Part shown: positions 5,792 to 38,832 of the stretch, one piece after another
How the letters are laid out: each line of letters starts with the position of its first letter
Numbering within the stretch: position 1 is the stretch's first letter
Assembly (NCBI GenBank): GCA_002305675.1
Contig: DBQA01000007.1
Coordinates: forward strand, 46,653 to 110,652
DNA from: Patescibacteria group bacterium UBA1406
GTDB lineage: Bacteria > Patescibacteriota > Microgenomatia > UBA1406
Reading direction: 5' to 3'
DNA: 64,000 bases
Program-made: the position numbers and the translations under genes
The notes under the pieces: model-generated
Seen by the model: only the letters and a program-made list of their open reading frames with translations
What the model was told of the DNA's origin: nothing
Databases searched by the model: none

Positions 5792-6154
5792 CTACTTGAG
5801 GATCACTTTCAGCTCAGGATCGATCTTCTGGCATTCCTCGGCCACAAGCCGCCGGTGGCAGTGGTCCGGGGTCTTTTCCCAACAAAGGATGGTGATATCC
5901 CGCTTCTTCGCGATCTCCGCCAAGAACTCGATGTAACCGCGCCGTCCTTCAATAACCTCCTTATTGAATCTCTTCACATATCCGTCCCAGTCGATGACCT
6001 TGGCATGTGCGTCATCCAAGAGCTTATGCGAAGGGGACAGGACAGGCATCCAGATGTCATAGACAGCCCAAGAATCGGGCCTTCTCATGATACAGACCCT
6101 GATACCGTCCTTGGGACTTGGCTTAGCCTGGATGGATTTGGTAAATAGGGCCAT
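5792..6154 (-). CDS. DUF488 (YeaO-like) family protein
   Basis: 120 aa with ...DGIRVCIMRRP...LSPSHKLL...ITILCWEKTPDHCHRRLVAE, the DUF488 pattern. Confidence 0.65.
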   Translation of the reverse strand: MALFTKSIQAKPSPKDGIRVCIMRRPDSWAVYDIWMPVLSPSHKLLDDAHAKVIDWDGYVKRFNKEVIEGRRGYIEFLAEIAKKRDITILCWEKTPDHCHRRLVAEECQKIDPELKVILK

Positions 6155-6171
6155 GTTTTTTAGTTTAACTA

Positions 6172-7569
6172 TTAAATAAGAGTTGTCAAATCCTTCCTCA
6201 TCACCATATGCTGGCCGGGTTTACCGTTACTGAAAACTCCGTTCTTATCATGCGTCACTTCTATTTCCCGATAACCCTGCTTGCCGAACCAGGAAGGGGA
6301 GTCCCCGGTGGCATGGACCTCCATTTCGTCATAGCCGCATTGCCTGGCGATCTGTTCGGAGGCCTGCATCAGGATGGAGCCGACCCCCAGATGAGCGTAG
6401 TCAAGATGGGTATGCAGCCTTCTGCCGTTCGCTATTGGGATGGCATTGTGCCTGACCACCCGGTATCCCACTATCTCCCGGCCATCCCTGACGACGATGG
6501 TACACAGATTGTTGGGATTGCCGCAAAGGTCCGCTATTCCTTCTGGAGTGTTGGCTTCTATATATTTCTGCCTGGTCTCATCGTCCAGTCCCTGGTAGTT
6601 AGGGGCTTCCCTGAAATTCCGGGTTGCCAAAGCGCTGATCTCTGGGTAGTCGGCCGGGGTTATTCCTTCAAGGGTGGCTATCCGCCCATCCTTGAGGCTG
6701 ACCGCCTCCTTCCATATTCCAGTCAGTCCTCCATATACGGAGCCGCCCTCCCTGTAACCATCCCGGAACTCCTCGTTCCCCAATAGAGCGACCATCTCTT
6801 CCAGTTCGTACGGCGTACCCAGGATGGAGCGGTACAATACAAGCAACGCCTCTTCGAAACCCTCCTCACCCCTTTTTATCCCGTCCACTTCGCTGATATG
6901 CCTTTCAAACATGGGGTGGGGCCAGCGCAGGCCGGCCGGAGTCCGCCGCATCCCCTCCAGTCCCAACTCGGTATAGTAAAGTTCAACCTCGTCCTCGGAG
7001 AAAGCGTCAACGGCAAAGCGATGCTCCCTGGTCATGGCAAGACCAAGACCAGGCGCCTCCTTATCTTTCAGACTTTTTCCCAGGGCGGCCATATTGATGC
7101 GGTAGGTGAAATCGGCCGGGCCGCGGCACAGGAGATGTTTCAGCATGGACAGCGCTTCCTGGTCGTCCTGGACATCAAGTGCCCGGGTCAAAAGCCGGCC
7201 GTCATTGATAAGCTCGACATCCGTAGCTACTCCAACCGCGTATCCCTCCCTGATCCCTATCCCCTCCACAAAGGTCCTCATGTCCTGCAACCCATCCATC
7301 GTTTTCAGGGCCGCCTTCATAGCCGGCATGATGTAAGCCCCCTTTTCGGCATCCTCGTCCCATTCCGGGGTGACGGGCATTACCGGCATATGCCAATCCT
7401 TGAAGGCTTCCTGGAAATAAAGCCCTTTTCTGGTGCCCGTGCGGGGAATTAGAACGGAGATGTTGTCCGGAGCTTTTCGCTTTGATGGAACCCGGCCGTA
7501 AAAGGCCTCCGGAGTCTTAAGCATTTGTTCGTAGGCACCGGTTGCCTTATACAGCTCGTTGATCGCCAT
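6172..7569 (-). CDS. two-domain protein: unknown ~320-aa N-terminal region plus a C-terminal GNAT acetyltransferase domain
   Basis: The C-terminal ~130 aa (TIVVRDGREIVGYRVV...HLGVGSILMQASEQIARQCGYDEMEVHA...FGKQGYREIE) looks like a GNAT fold. I recognise nothing in the N-terminal part. The start is taken as ATG 7569 (the track start at 7572 is a TTG one codon upstream). Confidence 0.7.
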   Translation of the reverse strand: MAINELYKATGAYEQMLKTPEAFYGRVPSKRKAPDNISVLIPRTGTRKGLYFQEAFKDWHMPVMPVTPEWDEDAEKGAYIMPAMKAALKTMDGLQDMRTFVEGIGIREGYAVGVATDVELINDGRLLTRALDVQDDQEALSMLKHLLCRGPADFTYRINMAALGKSLKDKEAPGLGLAMTREHRFAVDAFSEDEVELYYTELGLEGMRRTPAGLRWPHPMFERHISEVDGIKRGEEGFEEALLVLYRSILGTPYELEEMVALLGNEEFRDGYREGGSVYGGLTGIWKEAVSLKDGRIATLEGITPADYPEISALATRNFREAPNYQGLDDETRQKYIEANTPEGIADLCGNPNNLCTIVVRDGREIVGYRVVRHNAIPIANGRRLHTHLDYAHLGVGSILMQASEQIARQCGYDEMEVHATGDSPSWFGKQGYREIEVTHDKNGVFSNGKPGQHMVMRKDLTTLI

Positions 7570-7646
7570 CAATAAAAAAGCCGCGCTTGAAAGCGCGGTC
7601 TGGTCGCGAACTTGTTATTAAAAAAAGAGCTTTTTATAGGCTCCAT
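7569..7646 (-). CDS. candidate leaderless 25-codon upstream ORF (MEPIKSSFFNNKFATRPRFQARLFY*) whose TGA overlaps the ATG of the GNAT gene
   Basis: Hand-read. The promoter is TTGATT-17 nt-CATAAT, then 5 nt, then ATG at 7646. The stop and start share one base (TGATG at 7571-7567). Confidence 0.4.
   Translation of the reverse strand: MEPIKSSFFNNKFATRPRFQARLFY
7574..7598 (-). terminator. intrinsic-terminator-like hairpin plus U-tract inside the upstream ORF, ending 4 nt before the GNAT-gene ATG
   Basis: On the minus strand CCGCGCT-TTCA-AGCGCGG (7598-7581) is followed by CTTTTTTATTG. Confidence 0.55.
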
Positions 7647-7651
7647 GATTA

Positions 7652-7680
7652 ATTATGGCATCCAAGTGGAAAAAAATCAA
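7652..7680 (-). promoter_or_regulatory. sigma70-type promoter TTGATT-17-CATAAT
   Basis: -35 at 7680-7675, -10 at 7657-7652, with exactly 17 nt between them. Confidence 0.5.
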
Positions 7681-7701: not shown

Positions 7702-7709
7702 TGTATAAT
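7702..7709 (+). promoter_or_regulatory. extended -10 (TGTATAAT) 6 nt upstream of ATG 7716
   Basis: The sequence reads ctgTATAATttccgaATG. It sits back-to-back with the minus-strand promoter at 7652-7680. Confidence 0.45.
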
Positions 7710-7715
7710 TTCCGA

Positions 7716-7931
7716 ATGTCATCTTGGGGCGAATTACCAAATCCGGCAGGCTACGATATGCGGGAATGGCCAACCGACCTGATGGGACCGCTCAACGCCC
7801 ACGCTTTCGGCGCCCTGGCCCTCGTGCCCATGGCCGCCTGGGAATGGGGACCGTACCTATCCCAACCAGTTGATTTCCATCAGGGTGATGAGCCTTTCCC
7901 TCCGTCAACATCGCCTGGTGACAGCCGGTAA
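7716..7931 (+). CDS. hypothetical 71-aa Trp/Pro-rich protein (alternatively a 5' leader of the downstream gene)
   Basis: The ATG sits at the same distance from a TATAAT as other leaderless-type starts in this window. It ends 9 nt before the next gene. I recognise no family, and the composition is odd (4 Trp, many Pro/Gly). Confidence 0.35.
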   Translation: MSSWGELPNPAGYDMREWPTDLMGPLNAHAFGALALVPMAAWEWGPYLSQPVDFHQGDEPFPPSTSPGDSR

Positions 7932-10202: not shown

Positions 10203-10225
10203 AAAAAACCCCGCTTTTGGCGGGG
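10203..10225 (-). terminator. intrinsic terminator (second of two after pnp), 11 nt upstream of the NTase-like gene ATG
   Basis: On the minus strand CCCCGC-CAAAA-GCGGGG is followed by TTTTTT. Confidence 0.6.
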
Positions 10226-10310
10226 TGTTAAATCAAGAGTTTTTTGACCCTTGGTTTATTAACAATTAAGTCCTTGCAAGAACCCATTAGTTTTTAAGCC
10301 CTTAATACTT

Positions 10311-10339
10311 AAAAAAATACTCCAGTTGCTTGGAGTATT
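10311..10339 (-). terminator. intrinsic terminator of the rpsO-pnp operon
   Basis: A 9-bp perfect stem AATACTCCA/TGGAGTATT (10316-10324 / 10331-10339) with a 6-nt loop, followed by a T-run on the minus strand. It lies about 60 nt after the pnp stop. Confidence 0.7.
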
Positions 10340-10398
10340 GTGCGAGAAATCACAATCCTTATTAGTTTACCAAAAATCCGTCGCTTGTCAAAGGAAAT

Positions 10399-29538: not shown

Positions 29539-31227
29539 TTACATCCTCTCGACAGCTTTGATACCCAGAAGATACAGGCCGTTCTGGATGACCTGGGCTA
29601 CCCCGGCGGTCAGTTCCAGTCGGAAACGGTTGCCGATAACCTGGTGCTTGCTGTAGAAATTGTTGAAAGCTTGAGCCAGTTCATTGAGATAGCCGGCAAT
29701 ATAATTTGGCGAATATTTAAGGATGGTGTCCTCCACCACTTCGGGGAACTGGTATAGTTTTTTGAGAAGGTCCGACTCCTCTTTCGCTAAGCTTGCTTCC
29801 TGACTGCCGGCCTCTTTGCCTTCCTCCGACTTTCTCAAAATGCTCTTTGCCCTGGCGTATGTATATTGGAGATAGGGTCCGGAGTCGCCGGAAAAGGAAA
29901 CGCTGGCATCGATATCGAACGCCAGATATTTGAAGGGGCTCATCCTCAGGTAGGCGTACTTGATGGCCGCCACTGCGATGTCGCTGATCGCTTCCTCCGT
30001 CAGTTCGGTCCGGTTTTTCTCCACGATGTCCTCGATCCTTCCCTCTGCCTCGTCCAATATCGCTTCGGCCGGCACCACCTGACCTGTCCGAGAGGACATC
30101 TTCCCCTTCTTCAGTCCGACGAACTCGTAGGCATTGTGGTAATTCACCCCTTTGAAAAGATCCGGGTCCAACAGTTCCTCAACTTTATAGACAACCTTGA
30201 AAAAGCTTATCTGTTCCACTGCCACGTTGTTGACATGCTGGTCAAGCTTCCCGTATTCCTGATGCTTCAGGTACACGAGGCCTAGTTCCTTGCCCTCGTA
30301 GGTCAGATGTCCCTGTTTGTTCAGAAACACTCTTGTGTCCAGTCCGTACATGTCGCCGGGAAACACCACCGCCCCCTGGCTTTTGACCAGTATGCCTTTG
30401 TCCAGAGCTTCTTTCACTTTCCGCATCCCGAGCTCCAGGGTCTCGCTTTCCAGGTACTCCCGGTCAAAATGGGTATAGAGACGGTTATAGACCTCGCGGA
30501 ATTTGTCCAGGCTCCACTCCCTGCCCAGGTTCCAATAGCGGATGACTTTCTTGTCCGACTGTTCATAGATCTGTCTGTTGACCGTCTGGATCTCCTCTTT
30601 TGCCTGTTCGTCCTCCTCATAGGCTTTGGCCCCCTCGGCATAGCACTTGCCCAATAGCCCCACTCTCTTGTCGGTTTCCCGGGGCAGTTTTTCTTCAGGG
30701 ATCCGGGCCAGTGCCCAGACGCATTTGGCCACATGCATCCCTACATCCCCCTGATAATTGGCCCGGATGACCGTTGCCCCCTGGGCTTCGAAAAGCCTGA
30801 CGAGCGATTCCCCAAGGATGATGTTCCTCAGATGGCCGATGTGCATGATCTTGAACGGATTGGGGTGGGCATATTCGATCATGACCTTCTGTCCTTGGTA
30901 CAGAAGTCCCCGCCCGTATCTTTCCTGATCGGCCAGTATCCGGGCCAGGTTTTGCCGAAGAATGGTTTCCTTTAGGAAGAAGTTCAGGTATCCAGAATTT
31001 GCCACCTCCACTGCCGAAAGCATCTCGGGTTTCTGGCCTTCAATTCTGCCTTTCAGCTCCCCGGCTATCTCCCGGGGGCTTTTCTTCATTTCCCTGGCAA
31101 GCCTCATGGCGATATTAGTGGAATAGTCGCCGTGTTCCGACAGGTCGGGAGTGAAAACTTCAATCAGGGGGTGGTATTTTTTCTCCACCGCCGACCGCAG
31201 GTATTTTAGGATTTGGCCTTTGTGCAT
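29539..31227 (-). CDS. argS: arginine--tRNA ligase
   Basis: HIGHLRN (the HIGH motif), MSSRTGQ (KMSK-like), a DALR anticodon-binding C-terminus, and the typical terminal Met. Confidence 0.92.
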   Translation of the reverse strand: MHKGQILKYLRSAVEKKYHPLIEVFTPDLSEHGDYSTNIAMRLAREMKKSPREIAGELKGRIEGQKPEMLSAVEVANSGYLNFFLKETILRQNLARILADQERYGRGLLYQGQKVMIEYAHPNPFKIMHIGHLRNIILGESLVRLFEAQGATVIRANYQGDVGMHVAKCVWALARIPEEKLPRETDKRVGLLGKCYAEGAKAYEEDEQAKEEIQTVNRQIYEQSDKKVIRYWNLGREWSLDKFREVYNRLYTHFDREYLESETLELGMRKVKEALDKGILVKSQGAVVFPGDMYGLDTRVFLNKQGHLTYEGKELGLVYLKHQEYGKLDQHVNNVAVEQISFFKVVYKVEELLDPDLFKGVNYHNAYEFVGLKKGKMSSRTGQVVPAEAILDEAEGRIEDIVEKNRTELTEEAISDIAVAAIKYAYLRMSPFKYLAFDIDASVSFSGDSGPYLQYTYARAKSILRKSEEGKEAGSQEASLAKEESDLLKKLYQFPEVVEDTILKYSPNYIAGYLNELAQAFNNFYSKHQVIGNRFRLELTAGVAQVIQNGLYLLGIKAVERM

Positions 31228-31235
31228 AATGAAAA

Positions 31236-32610: not shown

Positions 32611-32636
32611 AAAAAACCCCGGCATGATGGCCGGGG
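32611..32636 (-). terminator. intrinsic terminator between PBP1A and the ATP-grasp gene (also a possible attenuator)
   Basis: On the minus strand CCCCGGC-CATCAT-GCCGGGG (32636-32617) is followed by TTTTTT. The ATP-grasp ATG is 25 nt downstream. Confidence 0.7.
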
Positions 32637-32664
32637 AAAGTAACGGGCTTTATAAACTCACTTT

Positions 32665-32739
32665 TCAGGCATAAAACCCATTACCCTCCCAAGAGTTCCG
32701 CCTCGAAACGGGTCTGGTTAAAGATAACGGGTTTTCCAT
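32665..32739 (-). CDS. candidate 24-codon leader ORF (MENPLSLTRPVSRRNSWEGNGFYA*)
   Basis: Hand-read. It starts 10 nt after TGcTATAAT and contains tandem Arg codons AGG CGG. It ends about 28 nt before the terminator stem. Confidence 0.3.
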   Translation of the reverse strand: MENPLSLTRPVSRRNSWEGNGFYA

Positions 32740-32749
32740 ATAATCTGCT

Positions 32750-35769: not shown

Positions 35770-37743
35770 CTAGTCCACGAAACTGAAACTGATACCGGCC
35801 TTTCGCAAAGGCATGATAGGCAGCGGGATGGGTTTGGTTTTGATGACGAATTCCGTGATGTTCCTTTCCTCATCGAGAATGTTCCTGGCCCGGTTGACGA
35901 GCTTTCCGGTGACACCCGAAAGCAGCCTGTCCCGATCGATGAAATTCTGGACCTGGCCTTTGACGATGGCGGTATAGGTATATTCGCCGCCCTCGGCCTC
36001 TTGAAGTGACAGCTTTCCGATCTCAAAGGTGTCGGCGATGAACTCCTTATCCCTGAGCCTCTCTGTCTGGACCTTCTTTACCAGTGAGCTTTGGGGCACG
36101 TAAAGGGCGCTCGCCCGGCCGGAAAGCTCAAGGGTCACATTGTCCACCTCGTCCTCCATTTTGGCTGATAGTTTCTCCTTGGGGTTGGCTATCCGGGCGG
36201 TATCGATGAACAGTACGTTATCCACCCCCTTCTTGCCATTGAACTTCACCTGCAGTTCCCGCTTGACACTGCTCATGGCTTTTTCGCTGAGCTCTTCCTT
36301 GTCTTCTGCAGAAAACACCCTGACGGTCTTCTTGAATCCTCCGGAGAAATCCTGGGTGGCCACGGCGTAGAAATCGTCTTCAGGCAGGTCGGCAAATACA
36401 AGCTTTGTGCCTTCGTTGATATTAGCATCCGCCCCTATCTTGACGGCTTTAAGGCCGACGCTTTTCTTACCGAAGGACCGGGTGACAACCCCTTCATCCA
36501 GGTTGGCGGTGATGGTGGCCGCCGGAACCGTCACAGAGGAAAGCGTGACAAAAGCCACCCCTCCTTTCTGCGTTTTGATCTCCGTGCCCTCGGCAATATC
36601 CTTTTTCTCAAAGGAGCCGTTATAGATACTGACCTCACCGGACGCCTTCTCGCCGACCTCCTTCTCTCCGGATGTTTGCTTGGAAACCTTGATGGCCACA
36701 TCTTCGGAGAGAACCTCTCCGAACTTTCTTTCGACGATGACAAAATCTATTTCCGTGGAAAAGTTCTCCTTCTTAGTGGTCAGCTGCACGTCTGCCTGGT
36801 GGAGAAAGAAAAGATAACCCGGGATCAGAAAGACCGCTAAAAATAGCAGCCATTTCTTTTGGAAAGCCAGGTTCAGTTTTGGCATCTTGAAGGAGGATAG
36901 CTTGTTCACGACCTCTGCTTTCAGGGGCGGTTTCTCATCCTCTTCAGCTGGTACAGCCCAGGTTTTTTCCGTGCCGTCCGTAAAGCCGGGTGCGGAAGGG
37001 AGACCCGACAAGGATGAATGCGGCAACCGGTCCGGCTCCTTCCGTTCTTCCGCCTCTCCTTGGGCCGGAACGTTCTTGGGTGGCTCACCGTTCTTGAAGT
37101 AGATCTTGGTGAAGATATCAATCAGCTCCGGTTCCTGGATCAGGATATCAATATGGAAGGTTTTTTTCTGTGGCGGCCTATAAAAGAACCCTATCCTTTC
37201 CGTCTTACCTTCCAGGATCTTCTCAAGTTCCTTCCAATTCTCGGCCTCCGATTGTGTCTTGGCCACTTTGGCGGTCTTGACGGTCTCCCCTTGCTTTACT
37301 TCATAAACCGTAAAGTCGTAAACGCTCTCTTCAATGATGTAAAAATGCTTTCGGCTCTCTGCATACGTGTGGGTGACCGCCTCGTACAAGTGGACGTAGC
37401 CGAGGTTTTCCAGATCCAGATTCTTCAGATTCTTTTTTATCTGCTTCAGAAAGTCTTCCCTAAGGGCTCCTGATTCCGTAGCATACAGGGAGTTTAGAAA
37501 CAGGACGGTCTTTTTCAGATAAGCACCCCCCTTCAAGTCTTTTTCGCAATCAAGAATTATTTTTTCAATTTTGTCCGTGGCGTCTTTGAGAAAAGGGTCC
37601 GCATGCTCTGAATACAGGGCGGTCCGGTTGTCAAGGTTGGCTTCCTCAAAGGCATAGCCGTATATCTTCTCACCGGAAAAAAAGACTAGGAGAACAAAAC
37701 CATCACTCTTTCCCTTAGGCTGTAAAAATGGAATCTTGAACAT
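35770..37743 (-). CDS. hypothetical bitopic protein (cytoplasmic N-domain, central TM, large beta-rich exodomain; possibly baseplate-J-like as often annotated in CPR)
   Basis: 657 aa with a TM (WLLFLAVFLIPGYLFFL) near aa 300. The exodomain pattern GEVSIYNGSFEKKDIAEGTEI...VGLKAVKIGADANINEGTKL is only a weak recollection of a family. Confidence 0.5.
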   Translation of the reverse strand: MFKIPFLQPKGKSDGFVLLVFFSGEKIYGYAFEEANLDNRTALYSEHADPFLKDATDKIEKIILDCEKDLKGGAYLKKTVLFLNSLYATESGALREDFLKQIKKNLKNLDLENLGYVHLYEAVTHTYAESRKHFYIIEESVYDFTVYEVKQGETVKTAKVAKTQSEAENWKELEKILEGKTERIGFFYRPPQKKTFHIDILIQEPELIDIFTKIYFKNGEPPKNVPAQGEAEERKEPDRLPHSSLSGLPSAPGFTDGTEKTWAVPAEEDEKPPLKAEVVNKLSSFKMPKLNLAFQKKWLLFLAVFLIPGYLFFLHQADVQLTTKKENFSTEIDFVIVERKFGEVLSEDVAIKVSKQTSGEKEVGEKASGEVSIYNGSFEKKDIAEGTEIKTQKGGVAFVTLSSVTVPAATITANLDEGVVTRSFGKKSVGLKAVKIGADANINEGTKLVFADLPEDDFYAVATQDFSGGFKKTVRVFSAEDKEELSEKAMSSVKRELQVKFNGKKGVDNVLFIDTARIANPKEKLSAKMEDEVDNVTLELSGRASALYVPQSSLVKKVQTERLRDKEFIADTFEIGKLSLQEAEGGEYTYTAIVKGQVQNFIDRDRLLSGVTGKLVNRARNILDEERNITEFVIKTKPIPLPIMPLRKAGISFSFVD

Positions 37744-37794
37744 AGGATAACTATAGCAAAATTCACCGTCAAATTTCCAAGACGATAAAAATTA

Positions 37795-38802
37795 TCACAA
37801 TAGTTTCTTTAGGCTTACGGATAACCGGGCGGCGAATTTCTCCTGGCGGAACTCCTTGGCCCGCTCCCGTTGCCGTTGGCAGATCTTTTTCTTGTCCCCG
37901 TAGTAGAGCTCTTCCAGACCCCCGGCAATGCTGCTGACACTATATGGGTCGACATAGACAGAGGTGTCCCGGCTTATTTCCCGGAGGACGGGGATGTGGG
38001 ACAGGACCACCGGGGTACCCAAAAGCGATGCCTCAAGCCAGGTCAGACCGAAACCTTCATCGATGGAAGGCAGAACCACGACGGTCGCCCGGCGGTACAC
38101 CTTGACCAGCATACCGTCATCCAGATAACCCAGGCTTATGAACCGCTTGTCCCCCTCCGTTATTTTTTTGAATTCGGCAAAGTCTTTCAACCACGGATGT
38201 TTCAGCGGCTGCCTGCTCACCAAGGCCTTGCCCACCATGACCAGGGTCAAATTGACCCTTCTGACCGCCAGGGCCAGCCTTTTCAAGTTCTTGTTCCAGG
38301 TGATATCCCCGACATAGAGCATGAAGCGGGGAGGCAGCAGTCCGGTGACACTGTCAGGGAGTTCATCCCCGTCACCTGTTTCAAAGATGCGCTTGGCGGC
38401 CGGATAGACCACTTCTACCCTATTTTCCGAAACGCCCAAGAACCTGATAATATCCTCTTTCACAACCTGTGAATCGGTGATGAAACCGGCGTATTCGGAG
38501 AGTCTCCTCTTATTCCTGGCGAGCACCCACGAACCCTTGATCCCGGCCGGAAAATGCCGGGGGTATTTCAGGGGGATCAGGTCGTGGATGACAAGGATAT
38601 TGGTCGCTTTCGAATTTATCCGCAGGGATCCGTAAGGGGTAAACCCGGGGTGGAGGACAACCTCCGGTTGGGCTTTATCCAGGAGTAGGTTGTGCCGCCG
38701 ACCGTGTCTTTCCACAGCCTCGACCACCATTCTCCCATAGCTGCCGATACCCCTGACCAAGGACAGGTCCCGGGTTTCAAGGCCTTCTACCCATAAGCGC
38801 AT
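37795..38802 (-). CDS. GT4-family glycosyltransferase
   Basis: ...VLPSIDEGFGLTWLEASLLGTPVVLS (the EX7E region). Confidence 0.8.
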   Translation of the reverse strand: MRLWVEGLETRDLSLVRGIGSYGRMVVEAVERHGRRHNLLLDKAQPEVVLHPGFTPYGSLRINSKATNILVIHDLIPLKYPRHFPAGIKGSWVLARNKRRLSEYAGFITDSQVVKEDIIRFLGVSENRVEVVYPAAKRIFETGDGDELPDSVTGLLPPRFMLYVGDITWNKNLKRLALAVRRVNLTLVMVGKALVSRQPLKHPWLKDFAEFKKITEGDKRFISLGYLDDGMLVKVYRRATVVVLPSIDEGFGLTWLEASLLGTPVVLSHIPVLREISRDTSVYVDPYSVSSIAGGLEELYYGDKKKICQRQRERAKEFRQEKFAARLSVSLKKLL

Positions 38803-38832
38803 AAGCTAATTATATACCAGCGGTTATTTGTA

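Follow-up and report, generated by a model that had tools for sequence, protein, structure and literature searches.

A candidate translation-coupled leader-peptide attenuator, predicted to be leaderless, upstream of a Maf-GNAT/DUF488 operon in a Patescibacterium

The Maf-GNAT/DUF488 locus and its leader

We analysed a 64,000-nucleotide (nt) stretch of the genome of Patescibacteria group bacterium UBA1406 (contig DBQA01000007.1, positions 46,653 to 110,652; this whole stretch is hereafter called the window), focusing on the leader of a two-gene cassette located on its minus strand. The first gene of the cassette (6172..7569) encodes a 465-amino-acid (aa) protein in which a Maf-like N-terminal part is fused to a C-terminal GNAT domain, as assigned by Pfam, a PDB profile match and AlphaFold/Foldseek comparisons, and the second gene (5792..6154) encodes a 120-aa DUF488-N3a protein. 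The leader of the 465-aa gene consists of a promoter-like sequence and a short open reading frame (ORF), hereafter the mini-ORF, that runs through an intrinsic-terminator-like hairpin. All coordinates are positions in the 64-kb window, and the elements of the leader are read 5' to 3' on the minus strand.

The leader promoter is composed of the -35 hexamer TTGATT (7680-7675), a 17-nt spacer ending in TGC, and the -10 hexamer CATAAT (7657-7652), which, together with a TG one base ahead of it, makes up the extended -10 element TGcCATAAT (7652..7660). Five nt (TAATC) separate the hexamer from an ATG (7646-7644), which opens the mini-ORF (7569..7646), a frame of 25 codons followed by TGA that is predicted to be leaderless and whose translation, MEPIKSSFFNNKFATRPRFQARLFY, contains five Phe among its 25 residues. 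Codons 17-22 encode the terminator-like element (7574..7598), in which a perfect 7-bp stem, CCGCGCU/AGCGCGG, with the loop UUCA (7598-7581) is followed by CUUUUUU (7580-7574). With short flanks (7604-7572), the hairpin folds at -13.4 kcal/mol (z = -3.9), which was equalled by 0 of 200 shuffled sequences. On the plus strand an A-run precedes the hairpin and no T-run follows it, so the element could act as a terminator only for minus-strand transcription. The U-tract ends 4 nt before the start codon of the 465-aa gene, and the mini-ORF's stop codon (TGA, 7571-7569) shares its A with that start codon (ATG, 7569-7567), forming the overlap TGATG (7567..7571). The start of the 465-aa gene has neither a Shine-Dalgarno (SD)-like sequence upstream nor a -10 box of its own. 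Nearer to the 5' end, another hairpin, GGAGC-N9-GCUCU (7626..7644), leads into a run of seven U at 7626-7620, the first of which is paired in the stem, and this run is a possible pause site for RNA polymerase.

The original prediction, made from the letters of the window, had described the same promoter, 5-nt spacing, ATG at 7646 and 25-codon ORF with five Phe, as well as the stop/start overlap, and we find each of them where it had placed them. The perfect 7-bp hairpin with its CUUUUUU tract is also present, although in codons 17-22 rather than 16-22 as had been given. It had further stated that the sole evident transcriptional route to the 465-aa gene crosses the terminator, in agreement with the lack of a -10 box at this gene and of any other evident promoter, and that the product ends in an acetyltransferase domain, which is correct for the C-terminal GNAT domain and incomplete in that it leaves out the Maf-like N-terminal one. 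Judged within the window, the leader promoter matches 9 of 12 consensus positions, and such sites are not significant alone (eight found versus 4.1 expected in 5 kb); an open 25-codon frame is likewise unremarkable alone, as a fraction of about 0.38 of shuffles are open to the hairpin. A hairpin followed by a U-tract is rare, with nine strict matches on both strands of the window. The feature rises above chance because its entire layout is kept in homologous loci, which are described in the next section.

Among the 38 window genes that start with ATG, 14 have a TAnnnT ending 4-11 nt ahead of the start codon, compared with 8% of all ATGs, and three have an SD-like 4-mer ahead of it. Where a -10 box lies just before the ATG of an ordinary window gene, the spacing between the two is 6-10 nt, and many other genes overlap the stop codon of the gene preceding them. 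Examples from this survey of gene starts, which covered the whole window, lie at 5792-6161, 26464, 29539-31234, 35770-37749, 37795-38808, 44386 and 49469. The many -10-proximal ATGs relative to the 8% background, together with the few SD sequences, point to a -10 box near the ATG as the normal gene-start signal of this organism, which appears to use leaderless mRNAs widely, its internal genes relying on translational coupling rather than on SD sequences. The mini-ORF would then bear the organism's standard gene-start signal, and the 465-aa gene would be reachable only via the mini-ORF and the hairpin. With moderate confidence, we favour the reading that the leader is a conserved pyrBI-type, translation-coupled leader-peptide attenuator that also primes re-initiation on the main gene, in an organism apparently starting many of its genes leaderless.

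Leaders of homologous operons

We collected the upstream regions of homologues of the fusion gene by exact-protein look-ups and one metagenome scan (nine loci), and found them to carry two types of leader. Type 1 is represented by the window, L084 (the same as L085 and L100), L086, L089, L090 (the same as L091 and L092), L093, L095 (the same as L096) and L099, giving eight non-redundant leaders, in which the main proteins are 31-41% identical to that of the window. The order of elements in type 1 is promoter, exactly 5 nt, ATG, short ORF, GC hairpin (CCCGCG-like), U6-7 and main start. The -35 hexamer TTGATT, 17 nt before the -10 box, recurs in L084, L089, L090, L093 and L095, and takes the form TTGACT in L086, while the L099 contig shows no clear -35; in a six-leader alignment the A, T, A and final T positions of the -10 box are invariant. 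An ATG lies exactly 5 nt after the -10 box in 8/8 type-1 leaders, compared with 0/5 leaders of type 2 that have the promoter on the contig, and it is immediately preceded by a pyrimidine in 8/8. The mini-ORF begins with ATGGA in six of the type-1 leaders, and 6/8 of the peptides begin with ME. An A/U-rich stretch of 34-48 nt lies between the region of the mini-ORF ATG and the GC hairpin, and the end of the terminator is always 3-5 nt from the main start codon, whose context is GTT-ATGG in six leaders, GTTAT-ATGG in L086 and ATTG-ATGG in the window. The hairpin, the U-tract and (G/A)TT-ATGG are kept in all type-1 leaders, where the surrounding leader has only about 60% column identity. Two terminators stand in tandem in L086 and L093. 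Hairpins at +3 similar to that of the window occur in L089, L093 and L095 and are missing from L084 and L099, and U-runs upstream of the hairpin, such as the U7 of the window, also occur in L086 and L089 and are absent from L084, L099 and L093. Conservation of the mini-ORF and hairpin in homologous loci had been proposed at the outset as a check on the feature, and the eight operons do keep the start of the mini-ORF as well as a terminator placed directly ahead of a main start codon that lacks an SD.

The mini-ORFs differ in where they end. Those of the window (25 aa), L086 (57 aa) and L093 (28 aa) pass through the hairpin, the first reaching a stop codon that overlaps the main ATG, the second passing through both of its terminators and the third through the first terminator. 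The stop codon is located in the loop in L084 (MERYKKKKFIQIYTRA), L099 (MERYRRKTKLAVDISTRA) and L095 (MVTIGQKNRLINTRI), abuts the stem in L089 (MERQVAFPFFKIIF), and lies 18 nt before the stem in L090 (MLTGG). Seven of the eight mini-ORFs are open to within 5 nt of the hairpin, and the shuffle P value for reaching it is about 0.005 for all eight, or 0.003-0.03 when two closely related pairs are collapsed. The main proteins of L084 and L099 are 52% identical, yet a 34-nt segment that takes in the hairpin with its loop stop codon, the U-tract and GTTATG is 100% identical between the two loci. Their mini-ORFs show nothing but synonymous changes in codons 2-4 (GAA/GAG, CGG/AGA and TAT/TAC), differ in length in frame, and both finish with TRA and the stop codon in the loop. 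The peptides of the window and L093 are also alike (MEPIKSSFFNNK and MELLRSSYNK). Over the type-1 leaders as a whole, peptide sequence and length (5-57 aa) are poorly conserved.

Several observations weigh against a translated mini-ORF that governs the terminator. The off frames are open to the hairpin in 7/16 cases, and the reach test is only moderately strong; L090 has an ORF of just five codons, whose end is 18 nt short of the hairpin; in L103, a distant homologue, the hairpin is present and a leaderless ATG is missing; and the independent type-1 leaders are few (eight). Hairpin-U-tract-ATG junctions also occur after ordinary genes of the window, for example at 10226-10208, so read-through may be generally leaky here. 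Furthermore, the 5-nt spacing from the -10 box to the mini-ORF ATG is shorter than the 6-10 nt found at ordinary window genes with a -10 box just before the ATG, so that transcription may in reality begin two bases further downstream, at the G, leaving no AUG. In that case the leader would act as RNA only: transcripts would start at the G of ATGG, the mini-ORF would be untranslated, the hairpin would be a trans-controlled terminator or a constitutive attenuator, and 'ATGGA' would be a promoter start-site element. Besides the short spacing, the moderate open-frame statistics and the cases of L090 and L103, the fact that T-G likewise offers a pyrimidine(-1)/purine(+1) context for a start speaks for such a leader. 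However, the position of the ATG is invariant in 8/8 leaders while the leader around it has about 60% column identity, a pyrimidine stands before the A in each of them, codons 2-4 of L084 and L099 change only synonymously, even from CGG to AGA, and the ORF reaches the hairpin in 7/8. In addition, the terminator is the sole conserved RNA structure, and the leader has no Rfam match. We consequently regard an RNA-only leader as rather improbable. In the Rfam search of the window the sole match is a tRNA, the best local hit being Thr_leader on the opposite strand with 21.8 bits against a threshold of 55; when the window, its leader and 11 homologous loci were searched with gathering and E-value thresholds, nothing but tRNAs and noise below the thresholds came up, and no match was obtained for leaders of either type.

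The original prediction had also likened the leader to the leader peptides that control some amino-acid and antibiotic-resistance genes, and had raised Phe as a possible signal. The corresponding explanation is classical Phe-sensing attenuation, or antibiotic-induced stalling, in which an antiterminator/terminator pair would be flipped, and it can appeal to the five Phe in the 25 residues of the window peptide and to the GNAT domain in the product, a fold of some resistance enzymes. Neither likeness is borne out by the homologues. When the region up to the 5' arm of the hairpin was folded in search of an antiterminator, the window showed just a 4-bp CGCG pairing, with no counterpart in L084, L086, L089, L090, L093, L095 and L099, so that no antiterminator is conserved. 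As for regulatory codons, Phe makes up 5/25 residues in the window versus 1/16 in L084, 0/18 in L099, 0/15 in L095 and 1/28 in L093, and no other residue is consistently enriched; the Phe richness of the window peptide looks like a by-product of its U-runs. Moreover, stalling upstream in this leader would raise termination rather than relieve it. We therefore rejected a trp/his/phe-type attenuator, as a short leader ORF is present at the sequence level without an antiterminator or a conserved codon run, and we consider Phe sensing or antibiotic-induced stalling of this kind highly improbable.

Since the unit has a complete promoter and terminator, it might also be an independent small gene, whose RNA of about 70 nt or 25-aa peptide acts in trans, the downstream gene being expressed by incidental read-through; attenuator-derived small RNAs and trans-acting leader peptides are known, such as rnTrpL/peTrpL. 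In the loci examined, however, the unit never occurs apart from the Maf-GNAT gene, its terminator always lies 3-5 nt before the main start with no other promoter evident for the main gene, and its peptide is poorly conserved in sequence and length. These facts make an independent small gene quite unlikely.

Proposed mechanism and riboswitch-like leaders

In the attenuator that we favour, TTGATT-17-CATAAT would start transcription at or beside the A of the ATG at 7646, and a 70S ribosome would load on the 5'-terminal AUG upon its emergence. RNA polymerase would then transcribe the strong hairpin and the U-tract, 4 nt short of the Maf-GNAT start codon. If no ribosome is close behind, the hairpin would fold, transcription would stop and an RNA of about 70 nt would be released. 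If the first ribosome is close behind, it would occupy codons 17-22 and block folding, and the polymerase would read through; the same ribosome would terminate at the UGA (0-26 nt from the main AUG in type-1 leaders; UGAUG in the window) and re-initiate on the SD-less, promoterless main ORF. Expression of the cassette would thereby require, and report, tight coupling of transcription and translation on the mini-ORF. The sequence elements, their conservation and the SD-poor context with many -10-proximal starts are observed, and from them we infer where transcription starts, that the mini-ORF is translated, that the hairpin terminates transcription and that a ribosome suppresses this termination, as well as any physiological signal. 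Candidates for the latter, named here as speculation, are general translation capacity, nucleoside triphosphate (NTP)-dependent pausing of the polymerase, and stalling by the peptide at the loop stop codon.

Translating ribosomes in E. coli repress a terminator almost completely if it is located in an ORF or within about 5-17 nt of the ORF's stop codon; more than about 27-30 nt away from the stop codon the terminator is again fully efficient, and the repression is lost when translation is uncoupled (PMC4824070). In 8/8 type-1 leaders the mini-ORF stop codon is found past the hairpin, within it or no more than 18 nt ahead of it, so their geometry fits direct masking of the terminator by a ribosome. 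The dependence of the cassette on coupled translation, which had been part of the first description of this leader, is thus plausible and agrees with the eight conserved leaders, the leaderless-rich genome and the E. coli results, the dependence itself being a prediction from the sequence.

Leaders of type 2 are found upstream of Maf-GNAT/DUF488 operons at L003:1056-1146, L002:265-351, L087:2176-2268, L098:1284-1368, L102:2361-2470 and L104:1-92, the last of which is cut at its 5' end, with its promoter off the contig. Their predicted fold consists of an outer helix, P1, around a large internal loop, whose two strands are J1 (YCAAGWAACRR) and J2 (GGAAACCAAR), and an enclosed hairpin, P2. The sequence of P2 varies while its pairing is kept (CCCGC/GCGGG, UGGCA/UGCCA, CUUCG/CGAAG and CUUUUUAU/AUAAAAAG); these compensatory changes were read from the individual folds and from the covariance-model alignment of L104, as MAFFT did not align L102 and L104. 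A covariance model built from four type-2 members finds L104 (E = 1e-3) with compensatory P2 pairs. The pattern CAAGWAAC-N(8-38)-GRAAACCAA occurs in 6 of the 104 fetched loci (1.4 Mb), in each case upstream of the fusion gene. In the L003 group an extension of P1 pairs with the SD sequence GGAGG, and in L102 and L104 a U7-8 tract comes directly after P1 and makes a terminator of it, downstream of which L104 has GTTAT-ATGG exactly as in type 1. As the window gives no match to the pattern and its leader none to the covariance model, we rejected the possibility that the window leader is a degenerate type-2 aptamer. Literature searches on riboswitches in Patescibacteria yielded nothing usable.

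A composite of the two types is found at L094:483-665, where the outer helix of a type-2-like RNA involves codons 2-5 of a mini-ORF with 26 codons (MKKQTISVIILFIERPLAGLFAFLSP), which runs through a terminator-like hairpin and U-run to a stop codon that overlaps the main start (ATGA). This suggests the layout of the window with an RNA switch placed over the initiation region of the mini-ORF, and a helix at this position lends independent support to the notion that translation of the mini-ORF is the controlled step.

A bolder proposal, which we put forward tentatively and hold to be possible but on the whole unlikely, is that the cassette is controlled at one terminator by two interchangeable sensors. 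One would be an undescribed riboswitch class with an internal-loop aptamer (CAAGUAAC/GGAAACCAA), and the other the leaderless mini-ORF, on which a ribosome, which the nascent ME(R)-peptide might stall at a stop codon in the hairpin loop, would mask the terminator and re-initiate on the SD-less gene. L094 would then be an evolutionary intermediate in which the aptamer gates the mini-ORF, and attenuators in which a leaderless mini-ORF spans a terminator might be general in these leaderless, SD-poor bacteria, an unrelated example being located at L016:13240.

The main challenge to regulation of any kind comes from a constitutive coupler. Here the translated mini-ORF would merely deliver ribosomes to the SD-less main ORF by termination-reinitiation, and the hairpin, as a terminator that leaks or as a structure stabilising the 5' end, would hold expression at a fixed low level, with nothing being sensed. 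In line with this explanation, the genome is SD-poor and joins genes by overlapping stop and start codons, similar hairpin-U-tract-ATG junctions follow ordinary genes, and no regulatory codons or alternative structures are conserved in the leaders. On the other hand, it would be simpler to start the main ORF itself without a leader, as is normal for genes of this genome; homologous operons place a riboswitch-like leader at the same spot, and in L094 the RNA would gate the mini-ORF, which implies a regulated node; and L084 and L099 share the hairpin, the loop stop and the U-tract with 100% identity over 34 nt. We judge a purely constitutive coupler to be unlikely, while granting it an appreciable chance.

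Cassette, genomic setting and comparison with known systems

The C-terminal third of the 465-aa protein is a GNAT domain according to Pfam, and its N-terminal 250 residues match the Maf family, with a PDB profile match to 2p5x (E = 1.2e-5); the Pfam Maf model itself matches 4/24 members of the fusion family. The AlphaFold model of the fusion has a mean confidence (pLDDT) of 90.5, and Foldseek matches it to the Maf structures 2amh, 4heb and 4p0e and to GNAT enzymes; proteins named dTTP/UTP pyrophosphatase are among the Foldseek/PDB matches. A word-indexed protein search returned just 3-4 homologues of the fusion, and we therefore used an exhaustive hidden Markov model search for the family count, by which the family is rare, with 32 clusters (50% identity) below 1e-30 among 1.84 billion representative proteins. 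A scan of GTDB genomes with the fusion-protein alignment found no relatives. All homologous loci that extend far enough have the DUF488-N3a gene next after the fusion gene, and in L084 and L102 genes for nucleotide salvage or RNA modification lie nearby. We infer from these neighbours and the Maf-like fold, which together suggest it, that the chemistry of the cassette may be nucleotide-related. Literature searches on the function of DUF488 gave nothing usable. A promoter-like site, TTGACA-16-TAAACT (10/12), is present on the minus strand at 6162-6189, where it falls within the final codons of the Maf-GNAT gene and ends 7 nt ahead of the ATG of DUF488, and the DUF488 gene may also be transcribed alone as a leaderless mRNA.

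The neighbours of the cassette in the window are housekeeping genes, coding for FtsK, a RodZ-like protein, polynucleotide phosphorylase (PNPase) and a type I phosphodiesterase. The closest PNPases among GTDB representatives (64-71% identity) belong to Candidatus Roizmanbacteria and other metagenome-assembled genomes of Microgenomates/Patescibacteria, and the window accordingly comes from a Roizmanbacteria-like Patescibacterium. In the relatives L005, L007 and L008 the phosphodiesterase gene and ftsK are immediate, divergent neighbours, whereas in the window the two cassette genes lie in between, and L008 retains a 47-aa DUF488 remnant at the cassette site. Judged from these gene orders, the Maf-GNAT gene and its DUF488 partner form a cassette that was inserted between ftsK and the phosphodiesterase gene. 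Homologous Maf-GNAT/DUF488 cassettes elsewhere occupy unrelated contexts. Back to back with the leader promoter (region 7704-7931), a 71-aa ORF, orf71 (7716-7931, plus strand), starts 6 nt after a TATAAT, has no homologues in the fetched loci, and ends 9 nt ahead of the SD-less phosphodiesterase gene, for which it may be a leaderless coupling ORF.

Similar units were noted elsewhere. In another Patescibacterium, L016:13206-13322 contains TTGCAA-17-TATAAT, 5 nt and ATGGA, the start of a 22-codon ORF (MDRLESDSRKLFLLAPHFCGVF) that runs through a terminator hairpin and U-tract, and is followed by a 473-aa gene and then by a deoxynucleoside kinase gene. The 473-aa gene was considered as a distant homologue of the fusion and rejected (hhalign probability 0.2%); the layout hints that the design could be more general in these bacteria. 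On the minus strand of the window, at 10208-10287, the stop codon of a 19-codon ORF (MGSCKDLIVNKPRVKKLLI; 10287-10228), which has no obvious promoter or SD, lies 1 nt before the hairpin ACCCCGC-CAAAA-GCGGGGU and its U-tract (10226-10208), directly preceding the start of a 325-aa gene; this is possibly a second pair of leader ORF and terminator. Downstream of pnp on the same strand (10316-10391) lie a promoter-like site (TTGACA-16-TAAACT), two hairpins and a terminator-like element, AATACTCCA...TGGAGTATT with U7, and the region has the appearance of a gene for a small RNA (about 50 nt) or of a 3' element of pnp. Finally, at 32617-32745 (minus strand), a TATAAT and 10 nt precede ATGGAAAAC, which opens a 24-codon ORF (MENPLSLTRPVSRRNSWEGNGFYA); a strong terminator, CCCCGGC-CATCAT-GCCGGGG with U6, stands about 30 nt past the stop of this ORF, and a 449-aa gene starts 24 nt later, so arranged that this may be another leader unit.

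To our knowledge, almost nothing is known about gene regulation in Patescibacteria, also referred to as the candidate phyla radiation (CPR), a lineage that is essentially uncultivated. The locus would offer a concrete, conserved and testable cis-regulatory design, implying that this lineage controls genes through the coupling of transcription to translation on leaderless mRNAs, and it would mark an uncharacterised, CPR-restricted Maf-GNAT and DUF488-N3a cassette as tightly regulated. An unclassified riboswitch-like RNA takes the place of the mini-ORF leader in some homologues and is combined with it in L094; the ligand of this RNA would offer a way to learn which signal governs the cassette and what role its enzymes have.

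Among known systems, we compared the leader with the pyrBI and pyrE attenuators of E. coli. The pyrBI attenuator works through a ribosome that follows the polymerase closely and blocks the hairpin, according to the account in PMC4824070, which cites Roland et al. As far as that account goes, the predicted unit resembles pyrBI and pyrE in having a single intrinsic terminator in or at the end of a translated leader ORF that reaches the structural gene, with no antiterminator. The window also has a U-run upstream of the hairpin, a candidate for the NTP-sensitive pause sites that mark pyrBI-type attenuators, and its product has a Maf-like fold, with matches to proteins named dTTP/UTP pyrophosphatase. 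The window differs from pyrBI in that its ORF is predicted to be leaderless rather than SD-driven and has 25 codons instead of 44, its main ORF lacks an SD and overlaps the leader ORF by UGAUG, the U-runs are not found in all type-1 relatives, and the host is a Patescibacterium.

Leaderless leader peptides are documented in Deinococcus deserti (PMC4007540) and in mycobacteria (bioRxiv 10.1101/834739). The window shares with these small ORFs a 5'-terminal AUG (predicted here), a short peptide ahead of polycistronic genes and a leaderless-rich host. The Deinococcus and mycobacterial ORFs, however, sense an amino acid through enriched codons (Cys, Trp and others) and alternative structures that free the ribosome-binding site or form an antiterminator, whereas the window has no conserved regulatory codons or alternative structure, and the ribosome itself would mask the terminator. 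With respect to the stop-proximal terminators of Li et al. (Nucleic Acids Research 2016, PMC4824070), the stop codons of the eight type-1 leaders, located beyond, inside or 0-18 nt before the hairpin, fall in the range in which tR2 is repressed; that system was engineered in E. coli with SD-led genes, while the window has a natural, conserved CPR leader. The type-2 leaders occupy the same place between the promoter and the Maf-GNAT start, and in L102 and L104 the outer helix with U7-8 serves as the putative terminator, but the window has no aptamer, both J1 (CAAGWAAC) and J2 (GRAAACCAA) being absent. Compared with all of these, what appears to be new is a predicted leaderless, single-hairpin coupling attenuator that would prime re-initiation, in a CPR-specific operon where it seems interchangeable with a riboswitch-like RNA.

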